From Candidatus Magasanikiibacteriota bacterium (GTDB lineage Bacteria; Patescibacteriota; Patescibacteriia; Magasanikbacterales; GWA2-37-8), in contig DAIOHD010000001.1 in NCBI GenBank assembly GCA_036744835.1, positions 399,860-463,859 of the forward strand: a DNA stretch of 64,000 nt, read 5' to 3'. Below the pieces are notes generated by a model that had not been told where the DNA came from, ran no database searches, and saw nothing but the letters and a program-made list of their open reading frames with translations. Of the stretch, positions 1,567 through 56,481 are shown piece by piece. The first letter of the stretch is position 1. Every line of letters begins with the position of its first letter. A program made the position numbers and the translations under genes.

Positions 1567-2259
1567 ATGCCCAAACCTCGTCGCGTTGCCATTTTTGACA
1601 TTGACGGAACGATATTTCGCTCCAGTCTTTTGATTGAGATAACCGAAGCCTTGATAGATGAAGGTATATTTTCGCCCAAGACCAGAAATATTTACATGAA
1701 ACCTTACAAAAACTGGTCCAATCGCAAAGATACTTACGAGAAATATATTGATTCGGTAGTAACGGCTTTCTTGAAAAACATCAAAGGTGTTGATTATAAT
1801 ATTTTTACCAAAATTGTCAGAAGGGTGATAAATGCGAAAAAAGACCGGGTTTATCGTTACACTCGCGATTTGGTTCATGATCTCAAGAAGAAAGGTTTTT
1901 TTCTCCTGGCTATTTCTCAATCACCCAAAGAGCTTGTTCAAAATTTCGGTTATAAGATGGGCTTTGATAAAGTTTATGGTCAATATTATGAAGTTGGTAA
2001 AAACAAGAAATTTACCGGTAAAGTTTTATCATTAGAGATGACCGGTAACAAAGCCAATTTACTTAACCGCGCGTTGGAGAGAAACAATATTACTCTGAAA
2101 GGATCTGTTGGAGTTGGGGATAGTGAAAGCGACATTGCTTTTTTGAAAATGGTGGATAATCCGATTTGTTTCAATCCCAATAATAAACTTTATCAACACG
2201 CCAAAAAACATGGATGGAGTGTTATAATAGAAAGAAAAGATGTTGTGTATAAAATATAA
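1567..2259 (+). CDS. HAD-superfamily hydrolase, subfamily IB (phosphoserine-phosphatase-like)
   Basis: N-terminal FDIDGT (HAD motif I) and C-terminal GDSESDIAFL (motif IV). 230 aa. Confidence 0.8.
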   Translation: MPKPRRVAIFDIDGTIFRSSLLIEITEALIDEGIFSPKTRNIYMKPYKNWSNRKDTYEKYIDSVVTAFLKNIKGVDYNIFTKIVRRVINAKKDRVYRYTRDLVHDLKKKGFFLLAISQSPKELVQNFGYKMGFDKVYGQYYEVGKNKKFTGKVLSLEMTGNKANLLNRALERNNITLKGSVGVGDSESDIAFLKMVDNPICFNPNNKLYQHAKKHGWSVIIERKDVVYKI

Positions 2260-2280
2260 TCCGAATTTATAAATTTTATC

Positions 2281-2323
2281 CCGCCCGTCAACAACATGAG
2301 CTGTAGGCGATAGCAGGCGGGCG
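2281..2323. repeat. GC-rich inverted repeat (CCGCCCG ... CGGGCGG) downstream of the HAD gene
   Basis: 7-bp GC stem with a loop of about 27 nt and no U-tract. It may be a terminator or a REP-like element. Confidence 0.4.
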
Positions 2324-2379
2324 AAATTACAAAAAAATAATAAAAATTTAATTTAAAAATTTTTGAATAATATAAAATT

Positions 2380-3582
2380 ATGAAAAATCAATTTATTATT
2401 GAAAATAATATTAATGAATACGTAAAATATTATTCGAAAAGAATTTTGAAAGATCCGGAATTTTATAAAAAAGATGAAGCATATAAATATTTAGCAGTTT
2501 CCGTTTTTCAAAAAGAATTTGATTTAAATAAAAAAGATCTAGCATTAATGCTGAAAAAATCATTTTCAAAAGCTAGAAATTTAGTAGGATCTAGTCAATA
2601 TTTACCAGATTCAGTATTGATTGAATTTGCTAAAAAAGACCCAAGAAAAGTTTGTAAATTATTAAAAAATTTATTAACCGAAGGTTTCCCTGCAAAAGAA
2701 AGAATAGATGATTTTATTGAACAAATAAAAAATAATTTTCCTCTTCAAAAAAAACAATACTATATTGATGCGAGATTTTTGAGTTTTTTATTAGCTGCAT
2801 ATAATCCAAATAAATATTTTTATATAAAATCGAAAGAATATAAAAAATTTGCTCAAATGATTGGTTATGAATTAGATTTAAAAGGTTTATCGCAAGGAGA
2901 AAAATATCAAGCCATGGCTGAATTAGCCGAATTAACTAAAAGTATCTTAAAAAATAATAAAGAATTTAATCAAGTACATGAGTTGATTGTAGAAAGTTTT
3001 GACTATAAAGACCATTCAATAAGTTGGGGGACTTTCGATTTTATTTTTGATGTAGCCAGGAGAGAAGGAAATCAATTTGTTAAAGTTAAAGAGAAAATAA
3101 AAGAACAATCAAAGGTTGTTAATGCAAAGAAGGAATCAAGCGAAGAGTTTTTATTAGAAGAAGAAGTTGTTGACGAGATAAAAGAAAAATCAAAAGATGA
3201 AATTTTACAAGAAGCCAGAGAATTTAAACCTAAAGATAATATTGGGTATAAACAAAAAACAGGTGAATTTAAAGTTAGGATTGATAATGCAAGGCAGAAA
3301 ACTAGAGTAAAAATTTTAGAAAATTATATTTGCCAAGTTTGCGGCTTTACTTTTGAATTTCAAAATTCAGAAGGTAAAAAAAGAAAATATGCTGAAGCCG
3401 ATCACATTATAGAGAAATCTAATGGAGGTACAGAAGAAATAACCAATCTTTGGGTTCTTTGCCCAAATTGTCATATGAAAAAAACATTAAATGTTATCAA
3501 AATTGATCCAATAAAAAAAATAGTGACAGAAAATGGTAAAATAATTAAAATTAACGATAATCATTTGGGTTGGAATAAATAA
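2380..3582 (+). CDS. HNH endonuclease domain protein (unknown N-terminal domain, C-terminal HNH)
   Basis: C-terminus CQVCGF..x18..ADHIIEKSNGGTEEITNLWVLCPNCHMKK is a canonical HNH (CxxC...DH...N...CxxCH) motif. The N-terminal 300 aa has no family I recognise. Confidence 0.75.
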   Translation: MKNQFIIENNINEYVKYYSKRILKDPEFYKKDEAYKYLAVSVFQKEFDLNKKDLALMLKKSFSKARNLVGSSQYLPDSVLIEFAKKDPRKVCKLLKNLLTEGFPAKERIDDFIEQIKNNFPLQKKQYYIDARFLSFLLAAYNPNKYFYIKSKEYKKFAQMIGYELDLKGLSQGEKYQAMAELAELTKSILKNNKEFNQVHELIVESFDYKDHSISWGTFDFIFDVARREGNQFVKVKEKIKEQSKVVNAKKESSEEFLLEEEVVDEIKEKSKDEILQEAREFKPKDNIGYKQKTGEFKVRIDNARQKTRVKILENYICQVCGFTFEFQNSEGKKRKYAEADHIIEKSNGGTEEITNLWVLCPNCHMKKTLNVIKIDPIKKIVTENGKIIKINDNHLGWNK

Positions 3583-9663: not shown

Positions 9664-9690
9664 ATCACTCCTTCGGGAGTGATTTTTTAT
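9664..9690 (+). terminator. intrinsic terminator (ATCACTCC-TTCG-GGAGTGAT + T6)
   Basis: Perfect 8-bp stem with a UUCG loop and a U-tract. Confidence 0.85.
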
Positions 9691-9691
9691 A

Positions 9692-9772
9692 TCCCTCCCT
9701 CTGCCTGAGAGGGAGGTTAGGAGGGAGTGGGAGAGACTCCTCCCTAACCCTCCTCTTGAAGAAGAGGAGGGA
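9692..9772. repeat. three consecutive CCCTCC/GGAGGG hairpins (GC-rich repeat element, intergenic copy)
   Basis: H1 CCTCCCTC..GAGGGAGG, H2 TTAGGAGGGAG..CTCCTCCCTAA, H3 CCCTCCTCTT-GAAG-AAGAGGAGGG. A paralogous segment lies at 9966-10002 inside mnmA. Confidence 0.8.
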
Positions 9773-9820
9773 ATTTTGTAATCTAGAGACCATTGAAAAG
9801 AACGAAATTCTTTGTTATAA

Positions 9821-10942
9821 TTGCTCTATATGAAATCAAAGAAAAAGCCTGTAAAGGTGTTAGTTTGTATGTCCGGTGGTGTAGATTCGTCTGTCGCCGC
9901 CGCTCTTTTGGTTAAGGCCGGATATGATGTTACCGGCGCGTTTATGGTGAATTATGATGAGGTTTCCTCCTCTGCCCGAGAGGGGGCTAGGGGGAGTGGG
10001 AGCTGTTGGCGAGGGGATTATCAAGATGCTCTGCGAGTCGCTGCTAAACTTCATATTCCACTTCTACGTTTGAATTTTGTTCGGGAATACAAAAAAGCGG
10101 TTTTGGATTATATGTACGCTGAATATAAAAAAGGTAGAACTCCAAATCCGGATGTTTTGTGTAATAAATTTGTGAAGTTTGGGTTTTGGTTGAAAAAAAC
10201 AAAAGAACTCGGTTTTGGCTATATGGCGACGGGTCATTACGCGAAGTTAAGTAGAAAGTTGAAAGTAGAAAGTAGAAAGTTAAAAGATTTCGAAATTAAA
10301 TTATTACAAGCGAAAGATGACAACAAGGATCAAACTTATTTCTTGCATCAATTAAATCAAAATCAATTAAAACACGTCATGTTTCCTGTTGGCGGATATA
10401 TCAAAGATGAAGTTCGTAAATTGGCGGATAAATTTGATTTACCAACTGCCAAAAAAGAAGAAAGCATGGGTATTTGTTTTATCGGAGAAGTGCCAATGAA
10501 AGAATTTTTGCAGAAAAAAATAAAAACTAAAAAAGGAAAAATAATTTTAAATAATAGTAAAGAAGTTTTGGGCGAACACGAAGGCATCCCTTTTTATACT
10601 ATCGGACAAAGATTGGGTTTGAATAATAAACCTTATTTTGTGGTAAAAAAAGACGCAAAGAAAAATATTTTGTTTGTTGGATATGAAAATGACGAGGAAC
10701 TTTTGAAAAAAGAAATTGAAATAGAAAATGTGAATTGGATAAGTGGACAAAAGCCGAAATTGCCGTTAAAATGTGAAGTAAGGCTACGACACAGGCAACC
10801 CTTACAGCAGTGTCATTGCGAGACCGCAGGTCGCGGTAATCTTATTGTAAAGTTTAGTAACCCTCAAAAAGCAGTAACACCCGGTCAGTTTGCGGTTTTA
10901 TATAGCAAAGGTGTTTGTCTTGGTGGGGGAGTTGTAAAATAA
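9821..10942 (+). CDS. mnmA: tRNA-specific 2-thiouridylase MnmA
   Basis: PP-loop SGGVDSS, the motifs GRTPNPDVLCNK and NKDQTYFL, and the C-terminal AVTPGQFAVLY...GGG. The true start is probably ATG 9830. Contains two repeat-derived in-frame insertions (see findings). Confidence 0.9.
   Translation: MLYMKSKKKPVKVLVCMSGGVDSSVAAALLVKAGYDVTGAFMVNYDEVSSSAREGARGSGSCWRGDYQDALRVAAKLHIPLLRLNFVREYKKAVLDYMYAEYKKGRTPNPDVLCNKFVKFGFWLKKTKELGFGYMATGHYAKLSRKLKVESRKLKDFEIKLLQAKDDNKDQTYFLHQLNQNQLKHVMFPVGGYIKDEVRKLADKFDLPTAKKEESMGICFIGEVPMKEFLQKKIKTKKGKIILNNSKEVLGEHEGIPFYTIGQRLGLNNKPYFVVKKDAKKNILFVGYENDEELLKKEIEIENVNWISGQKPKLPLKCEVRLRHRQPLQQCHCETAGRGNLIVKFSNPQKAVTPGQFAVLYSKGVCLGGGVVK
10247..10280 (+). repeat. tandem AGTAGAAAGT x3 repeat inside mnmA coding sequence
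   Basis: AAGTTAAGTAGAAAGTTGAAAGTAGAAAGTAGAAAGTT encodes KLSRKLKVESRKLK, an insertion relative to the E. coli MnmA alignment. Confidence 0.7.
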
Positions 10943-17170: not shown

Positions 17171-17596
17171 ATGGTAAAAACAGTAAAAGCTACATTGAAA
17201 AATGTAAAAAATAAAGATGAAAATCGCGCCGTTGGTCGCCGTAAATCGGCTTCTGCTCGTGTTCGTATAGGCAAGGGTGAAGGTAAAATTACGGTTAACG
17301 GCAAAGATTACAAAGAATATTTTTCTTTTTTTGAACAAGGTGTTGTTGTAACTCCTCTAAAAACCTTGGCTAAAGAAAAAGATTTGGATATTTCTGTAAA
17401 AGTGAACGGTGGTGGTAAAAAAGGACAAGCCGTAGCCGTGCAACACGGCATTGCTCGTGCTTTATTAAAATGGAACGAGGACTTTAGAAAAACCTTGAAA
17501 GCCGCCAATTTATTAACTCGAGATCCTCGAGTTAAAGAAAGAAAGAAGCCGGGTTTGAAAAAAGCTCGCCGTGCCCCACAGTGGTCGAAGCGTTAA
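17171..17596 (+). CDS. rpsI: 30S ribosomal protein S9
   Basis: ...GRRKSASARVRIGKGEGKITVNG...GLKKARRAPQWSKR, the characteristic S9 C-terminus. Confidence 0.95.
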   Translation: MVKTVKATLKNVKNKDENRAVGRRKSASARVRIGKGEGKITVNGKDYKEYFSFFEQGVVVTPLKTLAKEKDLDISVKVNGGGKKGQAVAVQHGIARALLKWNEDFRKTLKAANLLTRDPRVKERKKPGLKKARRAPQWSKR

Positions 17597-17718
17597 GCGA
17601 GACCAGTGTGGCAGAGGGGGGTCGGGGGAACTGGGTGTTCCACCGCGGAGGAGAGCAGCGAAGCGCTGAGAACCGTGGGTTCTTAGAGCGCGCAGCGCCC
17701 GCAAATGGTCCAAACGTT
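17597..17718 (+). pseudogene. GC-rich degenerate second copy of the rpsI 3' end (frame-disrupted remnant ending ...LRARSARKWSKR*)
   Basis: AGA GCG CGC AGC GCC CGC AAA TGG TCC AAA CGT TAA aligns codon-for-codon with the native rpsI end AAA GCT CGC CGT GCC CCA CAG TGG TCG AAG CGT TAA. About 65% GC versus about 30% for the window, and an in-frame TGA lies upstream. Confidence 0.55.
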
Positions 17719-17738
17719 AAACTATTACTTCAAAAAAG

Positions 17739-17765
17739 CACTCCCAATTTGGGGGTGTTTTTTTA
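17739..17765 (+). terminator. intrinsic terminator (CACTCCC-AATTT-GGGGGTG + T8)
   Basis: 7-bp stem followed by a U-tract, directly after the rpsI remnant. Confidence 0.7.
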
Positions 17766-17774
17766 TTTGTAATA

Positions 17775-17803
17775 TTGACTTTTCCTTGAATATATGCTAA
17801 TAT
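17775..17803 (+). promoter_or_regulatory. sigma-70 promoter TTGACT-17-TAATAT for the DUF218 gene
   Basis: TTGACT at 17775-17780, a 17-nt spacer, TAATAT at 17798-17803, then SD AGAGGGG. Confidence 0.7.
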
Positions 17804-17846
17804 ATTCTGTTAACGTTCATTAACATTATTAGAGGGGAATAAAGTC

Positions 17847-18434
17847 ATGGAAGACAAGCAGGTTCTCGGTTTTATTTTTGTGCCTGCCGAACAAGTGGAA
17901 ACACAGGACAAACTGTCCGCTCGGACCATTGCGCGCTTGGAGAAAGCGTTGCAGATTCACCGGAAAGGAGAACATGTCTTTTTCGTAGTTTCCGGCGGGA
18001 TATTCAATCCGCCCGAGATTCAGACGCAACCGGCCGGCAAACTGATGAAGGAATGGTTGATAGCCCAAGGAATCAACCAAGACCTCGTTCTTGTTGAGGA
18101 TCGATCGCTTGATACCTACGAAAACATCGAGAGGTCAATGGCTTTGATAGGTACCAAGATCTGGATGAAACATTTTCCTTTCCAATACCAAGGGGTAACC
18201 TATGTCACGCCGTGCGAAGGAAAAGTGGTGATCGTGAGCGATCACTGGCACCTTAAACGGTTTAAGCGATTGATGGTGTGCAGCAAGATTCCGATTACTT
18301 TTGAAGAATCGAGATATAAACTTGGTTTCTTGGGAATCGTTAAAGAGATCGTTTTTCTTGTTATCACGTATTTTGATCCCGAAGGAGAGGGGTATTTAAA
18401 TTGTTTCAACCGAGAGAGACGTCGTCAGAGTTGA
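17847..18434 (+). CDS. DUF218 (YdcF/SanA/ElyC-like) domain protein, GC-rich (about 48% GC) gene
   Basis: ...VVSGGIFNP...EAGKLMKEWLIAQGINQDLVLVEDRSLDTYENIERS matches the DUF218 core (SGG...E..S.DT.EN). Composition differs sharply from the flanking genes. Confidence 0.8.
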   Translation: MEDKQVLGFIFVPAEQVETQDKLSARTIARLEKALQIHRKGEHVFFVVSGGIFNPPEIQTQPAGKLMKEWLIAQGINQDLVLVEDRSLDTYENIERSMALIGTKIWMKHFPFQYQGVTYVTPCEGKVVIVSDHWHLKRFKRLMVCSKIPITFEESRYKLGFLGIVKEIVFLVITYFDPEGEGYLNCFNRERRRQS

Positions 18435-18444
18435 TAAAATTTTT

Positions 18445-18473
18445 GCCGGACCTATAAAGGTCCGGCTTTTTTG
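18445..18473 (+). terminator. intrinsic terminator (GCCGGACC-TATAAA-GGTCCGGC + T6)
   Basis: Perfect 8-bp GC stem and a U-tract. Confidence 0.85.
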
Positions 18474-18549
18474 TATTTAAAAATGTTTTTTCAAGAGGTG
18501 TTTTTTTATTTGTAAAAAGCAAAAAAGCCTGATATACTACCAAAAGATT

Positions 18550-55985: not shown

Positions 55986-56077
55986 TTTTACCTCCCCCGG
56001 AAGTTGATAAAGGGCCTCTTTTTAGCATCTCTTTATCTTAATTCTATTATAACAGCTCTGTTTAAAAAAGCCAATAT

Positions 56078-56106
56078 TGACAATACCTTTAAACCCTGCT
56101 AATATT
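56078..56106 (+). promoter_or_regulatory. sigma-70 promoter TTGACA-17-TAATAT for the structured RNA
   Basis: TTGACA at 56078-56083, a 17-nt spacer, and TAATAT at 56101-56106. Divergent from a minus-strand TTGGCT-17-TATAAT that serves the zinc-finger gene. Confidence 0.7.
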
Positions 56107-56111
56107 TTTTA

Positions 56112-56447
56112 GTTGTTCTTTAGAAGCCCGCGCAGCCAGCGGGATTACCTGTCCGGAACGGTAATGGGAATGCCGAGATTTCCAAGATCCTAGGCTCCTT
56201 GGAAGACATTAGCCTCCCCTAGCAAAGACGGATTGGCAAATGTCATGGCTGTATCTTCAGCTGTCGTCCGTGGCCGCTATAAATGCCGGAGCAAAAACCT
56301 CCTGAAAAATCTCAGGGTTTGGCCTGGGTGAGCTCCGAATGGATTACCTGCAGGCAAAAGTCAGGGTAAGTGCAATCTGCGCTTATAAAAATCCAGGTCG
56401 AATTCCCCTGTCTCGGGGGTCTGGCTAGGCTAAAGAACAATTTCCAG
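56112..56447 (+). ncRNA. unclassified GC-rich structured RNA of about 335 nt (13-bp terminal helix 1-13/320-332, 3' tail UCCA)
   Basis: About 52% GC in a roughly 30% GC genome, with no ORF of 60 aa or more in any frame. 5' AGUUGUUCUUUAG pairs with 3' CUAAAGAACAAUU. Seven internal hairpins. Flanked by a consensus promoter and an intrinsic terminator. Confidence 0.55.
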
Positions 56448-56481
56448 GCGCGTCACGCCATCCAGTGCGCGCCTTTTTTAT
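56448..56481 (+). terminator. intrinsic terminator (GGCGCG-N15-CGCGCC + T6)
   Basis: 6-bp GC stem and a U-tract immediately after the RNA 3' end. Confidence 0.8.

Follow-up and report, generated by a model that had tools for sequence, protein, structure and literature searches.

A GC-rich segment behind rpsI in a Patescibacteria genome belongs to a structured non-coding family and is probably a guide-directed insertion element

Why should the end of a ribosomal protein operon, in a stretch of DNA with 33.9 % GC, be followed at once by a short GC-rich segment that closes with a second version of the last gene's terminus? The question is raised by a 64-kb stretch of Candidatus Magasanikiibacteriota DNA (contig DAIOHD010000001.1), which we analyzed as a whole and refer to as the window; all coordinates without a locus name are positions in it. 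According to the open reading frame (ORF) list and Pfam, the operon end holds rpsD, rpoA, rplQ, rplM and rpsI. The coding sequence of rpsI (ribosomal protein S9; 17171-17596, + strand; Pfam Ribosomal_S9, E=6e-45) is intact and stops with TAA at 17594-17596. Directly after this stop, as the initial annotation had noticed, lies a segment of 124 nt (17597-17720) with 63.7 % GC, whose tail reads AGA GCG CGC AGC GCC CGC AAA TGG TCC AAA CGT TAA, with the stop at 17718-17720. That annotation took the segment for the decaying 3' end of a foreign rpsI, brought in from a higher-GC donor together with the DUF218 gene that follows. Here, we report that the segment belongs to a large family under structural constraint. 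We consider it probable that 17597-17720 is one copy of a widespread non-coding, non-autonomous, guide-directed insertion element of Patescibacteria, and that the apparent degenerate duplicate is the displaced target copy of the last 6-8 rpsI codons.

The duplication of the rpsI end is real and non-random, as had been claimed. In alignment with the native rpsI terminus, the 36-nt tail is identical at 26/36 positions, a score equalled by 0/1000 shuffles of the downstream 400 nt, and the last 21 nt (17700-17720 versus 17576-17596) are identical at 15/21 positions (0/200 shuffles), with TAA ending both. The 15 nt before them (17685-17699) match rpsI at 11/15 positions, yet they overlap hairpin P4 of the family described below and fit its consensus equally well; set beside the other family members, no more than the last 21-25 nt are clearly target-derived. 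The 88 nt that separate the rpsI stop from the copy are without similarity to rpsI, and an in-frame TGA is present inside the segment at 17667-17669, as the initial annotation had stated.

The family became visible in other genomes. We viewed the sequence downstream of rpsI in 22 of 80 relatives, and two loci (L039 and L043) carry a like arrangement of ~105 nt with shared motifs, each with its own rpsI terminus repeated at the end (TPRWQKR or TPHWQKR before the stop, versus APQWQKR in the native ends). A core pattern made of the shared hairpin and a GCGGA motif was found at no fewer than 120 metagenome loci, compared with ~2-6 expected by chance, a figure that we estimated from the information content of the pattern and an assumed collection size. 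The same pattern had 0 matches in viral contigs. A phage origin was rejected: a first, looser pattern had given seven viral-contig matches, all of them noise in GC-rich phage genes, and BLASTN against phage records returned nothing. We then used two covariance models (CMs), both built without the window clade. CM R1 (36 sequences) has its sole match in the 64 kb at 17598-17729 (E=0.018), and CM R2, from seven sequences of a subfamily with an extra hairpin, has its sole match at 17612-17690 (54.7 bits, E=4.3e-14). Rfam 15 gave no match at gathering score in the 64 kb and none over 17597-17720 at E<=10; on eight typical loci (E<=1) it reported only tRNAs and none on the core, and ARAGORN found no tRNA gene or tmRNA anywhere in the window. 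With no Rfam or ARAGORN match, the signal recognition particle (4.5S) RNA, tmRNA, tRNA, riboswitches and known ribozymes were ruled out; the first of these had already been considered and dismissed in the initial annotation, correctly so. A full-text literature search, with the core sequence itself included as a query, returned no description of the element, and the family is apparently undescribed so far.

On the element strand, a gene ending in a target (T, 10-20 nt) and the remainder of the gene up to its terminus (R) is followed by a spacer of 0-60 nt, often a terminator hairpin, and then by a guide of 10-20 nt that is the reverse complement of T and precedes a conserved core of ~90 nt. 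The core runs through J1, P2, J2, an optional P2a, P3 and P4, after which come the copy T'R' and the original downstream sequence. All of these parts can be placed on the + strand of the window. The target segment T+R, CCACAGTGGTCGAAGCGTTAA, comprises the final 6 rpsI codons and the stop (17576-17596) and was delimited from the sequence and duplex energies. The inserted element at 17597-17720, delimited by the CM matches and by sister conservation, contains spacer, guide, structured core and displaced target copy. Its guide, GACCAGTGTGGC (17601-17612; sequence and folds), equals, but for one mismatch, the reverse complement of the rpsI target CCACAGTGGTC, and the guide portion GACCAGTGTGG is complementary to CCACAGTGGTC at 10/11 positions. 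The purine-rich joiner J1, AGAGGGGGGT (17613-17622), was placed by CM alignment and has the family consensus GGGAAAGGGGU. It leads into hairpin P2, CGGGGGAAC-TGGGT-GTTCCACCG (17623-17645), which is backed by covariation with L039/L043 (GG/CC versus AA/TT) and by family pair counts; the family consensus is CGGGRAAAC-loop-GUUUYCCCG. J2 (17645-17655; consensus UGGCGGAA) holds the GCGGA motif, invariant in the family alignment. The optional hairpin P2a, CAGCG-AAG-CGCTG (17656-17668), marks the subfamily and is homologous to that of L184, L200, L121, L122 and L205. P3, AGAACC-GTG-GGTTCT (17669-17683), shows double-sided changes across the family, where an example is UUAAAACC-GNNG-GGUUUUAA. The P4 region, AGAGC-GCGC GCA GCGC-C (17685-17699), corresponds to the consensus GGAGC-variable hairpin-GCGAC, in which tandem G.A pairs are possible; its support consists of per-sequence hairpins of differing sequence, as the CMs carry no P4 base pairs. 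Finally, the displaced rpsI terminus copy CGCAAATGGTCCAAACGTTAA (17700-17720; KWSKR and stop at its end; 15/21 identity) pairs with the guide as the 3' strand of helix P1, and analogous copies are found at L039, L043, L163, L189 and L164. Throughout the family, guide and displaced copy can close the core as P1.

The helices are supported by the family as a whole. For P2 and P3, 98.2 % of the cells are paired and 131 changes occurred on both sides, which 0/500 shuffles matched; all 8 base pairs of P3 covary, and sliding the P2/P3 partners lowers pairing to <=65 %. The GC-richness of the segment is attributed to base-paired structure and not to donor composition.

The guide is the part that ties each copy to its location. 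Guide and own displaced copy pair with a median of -17.4 kcal/mol, versus -10.5 for non-cognate combinations (p=5e-25; p=1.5e-18 in the non-tRNA subset). In the 51 copies with an identifiable intact target, however, the guide pairs better with that target (median -23.7 kcal/mol) than with the displaced copy (-18.7); the intact target was better in 34 and the displaced copy in 7 (Wilcoxon p=1.3e-5). Many tRNA-linked displaced copies start with GTGAGA where the tRNA has GTTCGA, and the guide still fits GTTCGA and in such copies spans the insertion point. The guide thus appears to be kept complementary to functional targets, whereas a helix that served folding only would predict the opposite. The window copy behaves alike: its guide forms a duplex of -21.7 kcal/mol with the native rpsI end and of -14.8 with the downstream copy, and the local hairpin of rpsI end and guide reaches -20.7 kcal/mol with the stop codon in its loop. 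At L137, all three displaced copies read GTTTGATTCC where the tRNA reads GTCCGACTCC, and the three C-to-T changes are compatible with G.U pairing to the guide.

The duplicated stretch is equally regular. The intact target lies 22-93 nt upstream of J1, and the direct repeat starts exactly at the core 3' end in every case. Repeat lengths range widely, from 20 nt (L134, L173) and 24-25 nt (L206, L101) to 85 nt (L094) and 96 nt (the L182 array); at L122 there are 62 identical nt within a near-identical stretch of ~75 nt to the stop codon. The duplicated stretch usually spans from the insertion point to the gene terminus, be it a stop codon, a start codon or a tRNA 3' end, and consequently the host gene stays intact. 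At L134 (FtsZ) and L173 (a Mur ligase) duplication is limited to T, and spacer and guide supply the last codons anew.

A single core occurs at more than 25 different targets (17 tRNA types and at least 9 protein genes), all of them strongly conserved motifs near the end of a gene. A tRNA gene on the same strand precedes 60/119 distinct copies, covering 17 amino-acid types, and at these copies the guide is antisense to the T-arm and acceptor 3' strand; in many of them a terminator stands between tRNA and core. Among protein genes, those for ClpP, GyrB, FtsZ and a Mur ligase have copies at the C-terminal end, and those for RNase H, EF-Tu-type GTPases, a TrxB-like oxidoreductase and L11 (rplK) have them at the N-terminal end and on the opposite strand. 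The rpsI gene was targeted in at least four lineages (the window clade; L039/L043/L163/L175; L189; L164). These results also speak against a high-GC donor that recombined through rpsI homology, since the family of the segment occurs at dozens of other gene ends, each member copying its own local target. Tandem arrays are found at L137 and L182; at the former (1047-1690), tRNA-Gly precedes three tandem units, of which the third differs in its spacer and has a 37-nt insertion in its P2 loop. The distribution is patchy. The closest RpsI relatives (L001-L005, 64-77 % identity) gave no match at E<=0.01, where the known L081 copy goes undetected as well; no core was seen on inspection of their rpsI-downstream sequences, and the divergence of these genomes prevents a precise definition of an empty site. 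Degenerate second rpsI termini, 10-25 nt past the stop and without a recognisable core between, were observed in two other Patescibacteria, at L012 (3369-3420; PQLSKR and stop versus native PQFSKR and stop) and L003 (3396-3440), and may be scars of element loss. Another arrangement lies outside the general model: at L105 (265-378), L123 (4325-4438) and L142 (1621-1732), the core 3' end (...GACG) abuts a complete tRNA 5' end, with no complementary guide visible upstream.

Conservation at the rpsI locus was assessed with a syntenic sister contig (L081) and a fragment (L082), both reached via the DUF218 protein, and with L135, reached via the metagenome scan. Between the window and L081, the segment is 95.2 % identical, whereas rpoA, rplQ, rplM, rpsI, DUF218, flippase and glycosyltransferase genes are 72-87 % identical, with 51-72 % at the third codon positions of these seven flanking genes and 88-94 % at the first and second positions of the ribosomal protein genes. 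Across L081/L082 and L135, conservation of the segment is 95-100 %, against which the idea of a donor rpsI pseudogene fails; the initial annotation had itself named such conservation in sister genomes as grounds for refuting it. In the three-way alignment of window, L081 and L135, positions 17620-17695 are invariant, and the final 50 nt of rpsI hold eight mostly synonymous differences. The sisters differ by a 1-nt indel in the 5' part of the segment, so that this part is non-coding. An intrinsic terminator of the rpsI operon (a predicted terminator-like hairpin, 17732-17764, +), kept in L081 and L135, comes after the element, which thus lies within the rpsI transcription unit, in its 3' untranslated region (UTR). 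The active form is most likely an RNA of the strand shown, which here would be co-transcribed with rpsI as a 3' UTR.

How would such an element spread? Its mobility is suggested by architecture. Because the guides vary with the target, prefer the intact target and in many copies span the insertion point, the element would reach its sites through guide-target base pairing. Insertion would duplicate a variable length of the target, and viable insertions would be only those that duplicate or fortuitously rebuild the gene terminus; candidates for the catalyst are a protein encoded elsewhere or the RNA itself. We advance more tentatively, as a possibility somewhat short of even chances, that the family may be a new class of programmable mobile element: a structured RNA of ~100 nt without a linked protein gene, whose 10-20 nt guide selects conserved termini of tRNA and essential genes across Patescibacteria and which duplicates the gene end as it inserts, catalysed either by the RNA itself or by a trans-acting enzyme whose guidance by RNA has so far gone unnoticed.

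Several points weigh against a guide-directed insertion element. No pair of near-identical genomes, one empty and one filled, was found, and all-against-all clustering of the ORFs within +/-4 kb of 122 copies revealed no recurrent transposase, recombinase, reverse transcriptase or nuclease, but otherwise host genes only. The model has no account of how a new guide arises for a new target, and the strong conservation of an old insertion could reflect a host function. Moreover, the repeat often ends 0-5 nt from a stop or start codon, which a purely random staggered cut would need selection to explain. Differences between copy and target show no wobble-compatible excess (34 versus 36), and P2/P3 hold 13 G.U and 8 A.C pairs, counts that do not decide the strand or between an RNA and a DNA form. 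The window copy folded alone is unremarkable (z=-0.5 without the terminator; z=-2.7 including it), although single-sequence folding is uninformative for GC-rich RNA and the minimum free energy (MFE) fold mispairs P2a and P4. Within the same +/-4 kb, ORFs of 180-280 aa with an N-terminal helix-turn-helix (HTH) and a LAGLIDADG-like 'LYWGEG...NTD' motif were observed near 8/122 copies, at variable distance and strand (L096, L140/L148, L144, L169, L170, L195 and L205; 0.1-4 kb from the element); they are possibly free-standing homing endonucleases of tRNA regions, and we judged their link to the element incidental.

These points give room to other explanations. One is that the segment is a cis-acting RNA which serves the host as a 3'-UTR or leader structure, for instance a translation-coupled switch between P1 and the hairpin of rpsI end and guide, or an aid to the stability or processing of rpsI and tRNA transcripts; its spread would then be incidental. 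The segment is indeed the most conserved sequence of the region (95 % versus 72-87 % in the flanks and 88-94 % at ribosomal codon positions 1 and 2), it stands before the terminator inside the rpsI transcription unit, and its two guide pairings are mutually exclusive (-21.7 versus -14.8 kcal/mol), the stronger one having the stop codon in its loop. But the same core stands at unrelated genes, and on the opposite strand at 5' ends, so that no single cis role fits; target duplications, tandem arrays and the patchy distribution are signatures of insertion, and a terminator separates many copies from the tRNA. We therefore regard a purely host-serving role as unlikely. To the same degree we doubt that the element travels as single-stranded DNA or a small circle, in which guide and target copy fold to mimic the chromosomal target and a host recombinase or RecA integrates the circle by a crossover in the shared target, yielding direct repeats. 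The layout gene-T-R / spacer-guide-core-T'-R' is exactly that of a single crossover between a circle T-R-spacer-guide-core and the target, and tandem arrays exist. Where native and displaced rpsI ends differ, nearly every difference is synonymous, which is what descent of one end from another lineage would produce, and the ends are swapped between L039 and L043 (AAGCGC versus AAACGT). Together, these two observations suggest that one end is often from another lineage; such a foreign origin fits recombination across a shared target, by a circle or by homing, at least as well as a de novo staggered cut. Yet double-stranded DNA could not form a circle as small as 150-250 nt, the conserved purine-rich joiners and the multi-helix junction resemble RNA tertiary structure, no recombinase is linked to the copies, and the acquisition of the restoring gene end at a new kind of target is left unexplained.

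Remnants of a conventional integrase island, similar to a cis-mobilizable element (CIME), would be a more familiar answer: an island at rpsI or tRNA 3' ends, mostly deleted, would have left attL, a stub and attR, with DUF218 as leftover cargo. Gene 3' ends including those of tRNA genes are classic integrase targets and integration duplicates the gene end; rpsI is also a target of streptococcal integrative elements; and the cargo after rpsI differs in relatives, being DUF218 or an isochorismatase-like gene. One core at more than 25 targets is nevertheless incompatible with protein-determined att specificity, and the stub boundaries are the same everywhere and under structural constraint. Targets at 5' ends exist, no integrase is found near the copies (122 loci), and there is no third rpsI-like repeat beyond DUF218, where the repeat (19 nt) is unrelated; we rate this explanation as improbable. 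It is very improbable, too, that the element behaves like an intron, with the stretch from target to core end removed from the transcript, the downstream copy as the real gene end and the upstream copy serving the unspliced RNA. Past the Trp codon, displaced rpsI ends of several lineages do keep (S/Q/R)KR and the stop while their codons change synonymously, in part by switches between Ser and Arg codon families, and the guide pairs with upstream exon-like sequence as does the internal guide sequence of group I introns. However, this synonymous pattern is equally explained by a foreign origin of one copy or by guide-pairing constraint, the core is far too small for group I/II ribozymes and has no Rfam intron match, terminators lie between many tRNAs and the core, and many displaced tRNA copies have GTGAGA in place of the essential T-loop GTTCGA. 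As to the single donor fragment with rpsI 3' end and DUF218 that recombined at the operon end, we find it scarcely credible. Its rpsI-like tail is real, nhmmer aligns the 3' part of the element with genuine rpsI ends and terminators of other Patescibacteria (L042, E=3.5e-4), and DUF218 is compositionally foreign. On the other hand, the piece is more conserved than any flanking gene, is present in L135 without DUF218 and is a CM-verified member of a structured family at many genes, and its 88 nt between stop and copy show neither rpsI similarity nor coding constraint, with the 1-nt indel between sisters. What remains of the foreign-islet reading is the rpsI-like tail and the foreign DUF218; the joint origin and the decaying pseudogene do not stand.

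If the guide-directed insertion element is accepted as the probable reading, the closest comparison is with the bridge (seek) RNAs of IS110/IS1111, which are likewise structured non-coding RNAs (~100-180 nt) whose programmable target-complementary segments set specificity. Unlike those, which lie beside a DEDD/serine recombinase gene in an insertion sequence of 1.2-1.5 kb, the present copies (122) have no recurrent recombinase nearby. Bridge RNAs have two internal loops, for target and donor, and a 2-nt core, whereas here P2, P3 and P4 with one closing helix offer no paired guide loops, a single guide pairs in cis with the target copy, target duplications are long and variable, and there is no Rfam or sequence similarity. 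The omega-RNAs of IS200/IS605, TnpB-IscB homing and PATEs share a small structured guide RNA, selfish upkeep via the unoccupied site and short non-autonomous derivatives; in these systems, however, the guide is the transcribed flank and not an inverted copy, and there is no target duplication, while here TnpA/TnpB are not near the copies and Rfam families of the omega-RNA type do not match. In group I introns, a guide 5' of a structured core also pairs upstream (as P1) and downstream (as P10), and group I introns, inteins and homing elements also use the most conserved motifs of tRNA and essential genes as sites. Here, by contrast, the core of ~90 nt has no P3-P9 catalytic core and no Rfam Intron_gpI match, the host gene is kept whole by terminus duplication and not by splicing, and terminators often stand between gene and core. 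The sequence GGGAAAGGGGUC is also present in P4-J4/5-P5 of the Tetrahymena group I intron, presumably by coincidence.

DNA-based systems offer further parallels. Integrase islands and CIMEs at tRNA and rpsI 3' ends share 3'-end integration, restoration of the end, flanking target repeats and tandem accretion, but the present elements are ~100-250 nt long, lack an integrase, use dozens of targets including 5' ends and carry a target-complementary guide. In the single-stranded attP hairpin of CTX-phi and of integrative mobile elements exploiting Xer (IMEX), inverted target copies around a spacer also fold into a duplex that mimics the chromosomal target; CTX-phi, however, is a whole phage mimicking one site (dif) for XerCD, while here the mimicked sequence differs per target and the spacer is a conserved structured core. 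Repeats resembling miniature inverted-repeat transposable elements (Correia, RPE, REP/BIME) are similarly short, non-coding, multicopy, structured and located at gene ends, but they have fixed terminal inverted repeats and short fixed or no target duplications, and lack a target-specific guide and terminus restoration. A diversity-generating retroelement with template and variable repeats (TR/VR) was ruled out, as the substitution spectrum between copies has no A bias and no recurrent reverse transcriptase lies near them.

If the proposal is true, Patescibacteria carry abundant tiny elements whose sites are set by a short exchangeable complementary sequence, with no attached transposase gene. 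They would join the natural nucleic-acid-guided insertion systems, such as group II introns, CRISPR-associated transposons, IS110 bridge RNAs and omega-RNA homing, and might lead to a guided enzyme or ribozyme that has so far escaped notice. In these bacteria, a GC-rich "islet" or a second gene end behind a tRNA or ribosomal protein gene should then be annotated neither as a pseudogene nor as a transfer scar, and the elements would mark rebuilt gene ends, as in FtsZ and the Mur ligase with newly encoded C-terminal tails. The conservation at old insertions raises the question of selfish persistence versus domestication.

What, then, is the DUF218 gene behind the segment? The gene (17847-18434, +; 195 aa) belongs to the DUF218/YdcF family (Pfam PF02698, 64.4 bits, E=1.3e-17, with a gathering cutoff of 27.6). 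The name YdcF family protein, from Candidatus Magasanikbacteria, is attached to a relative that shares at least 90 % identity with P0002, and P0002 in turn shares 78 % with the window protein. Exact copies of the window RpsI and DUF218 proteins were not found in the assemblies. As the initial annotation had described, the gene is preceded by a promoter-like site (TTGACT-17-TAATAT, 17775-17803, +), itself after the terminator that follows the segment, and is followed by a second terminator (18445-18466, +). Its ORF has 45.7 % GC, and its GC content at third codon positions (GC3) of 0.52 makes it the top outlier against 0.28 +/- 0.06 over 43 ORFs. A perfect 19-nt direct repeat, GGTGTTTTTTTATTTGTAA, flanks the gene: the left copy (17754-17772, +) is the tail of the rpsI terminator, and the right copy (18497-18515, +) abuts the promoter of a polysaccharide-flippase gene. 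The repeat has two copies in the 64 kb, 743 bp apart from start to start, and 0/100 shuffles gave two. Removing one repeat with the intervening DNA (743 bp) joins the rpsI terminator to the flippase promoter, and in distant relatives (L013, L046, L077 and L008) the polysaccharide-flippase gene directly follows rpsI. This repeat resembles a target duplication, or a scar of recombination, left by the cassette. By composition, flanking repeats and gene order in the distant relatives, DUF218 is an insertion, as had been claimed, and a separate, horizontally acquired, compositionally foreign cassette.

Its arrival with the segment as a single islet from a high-GC donor is contradicted by L135, which carries the segment and terminator without DUF218, so that the two are independent; the cassette would have come later and independently, beyond the terminator. 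At L135 an isochorismatase-like gene stands where DUF218 would be, and the position directly behind the rpsI terminator looks like a hot spot of cargo exchange. There, positions 1767-2760 (minus strand of the locus) encode the isochorismatase-like gene and then a cytidylyltransferase-like gene. Between DUF218 and the flippase, the intergenic stretch 18435-18549 is 96 % identical to L081 5589-5732 over 100 aligned positions, much above the surrounding genes, and is possibly a conserved promoter or leader.

Elsewhere in the window, a region of 367 nt with 52 % GC and no ORF (56113-56479, +) lies between a TTGACA...TAATAT promoter-like site (56077-56106) and a strong terminator. It had no Rfam match at E<=1 and no ARAGORN tmRNA; its MFE is -138.8 kcal/mol (z=-3.8 versus mononucleotide shuffles), and it is likely an unclassified or very divergent structured RNA gene. 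Other short GC peaks of the window, for example 9671-10060, reach up to 62 % GC.

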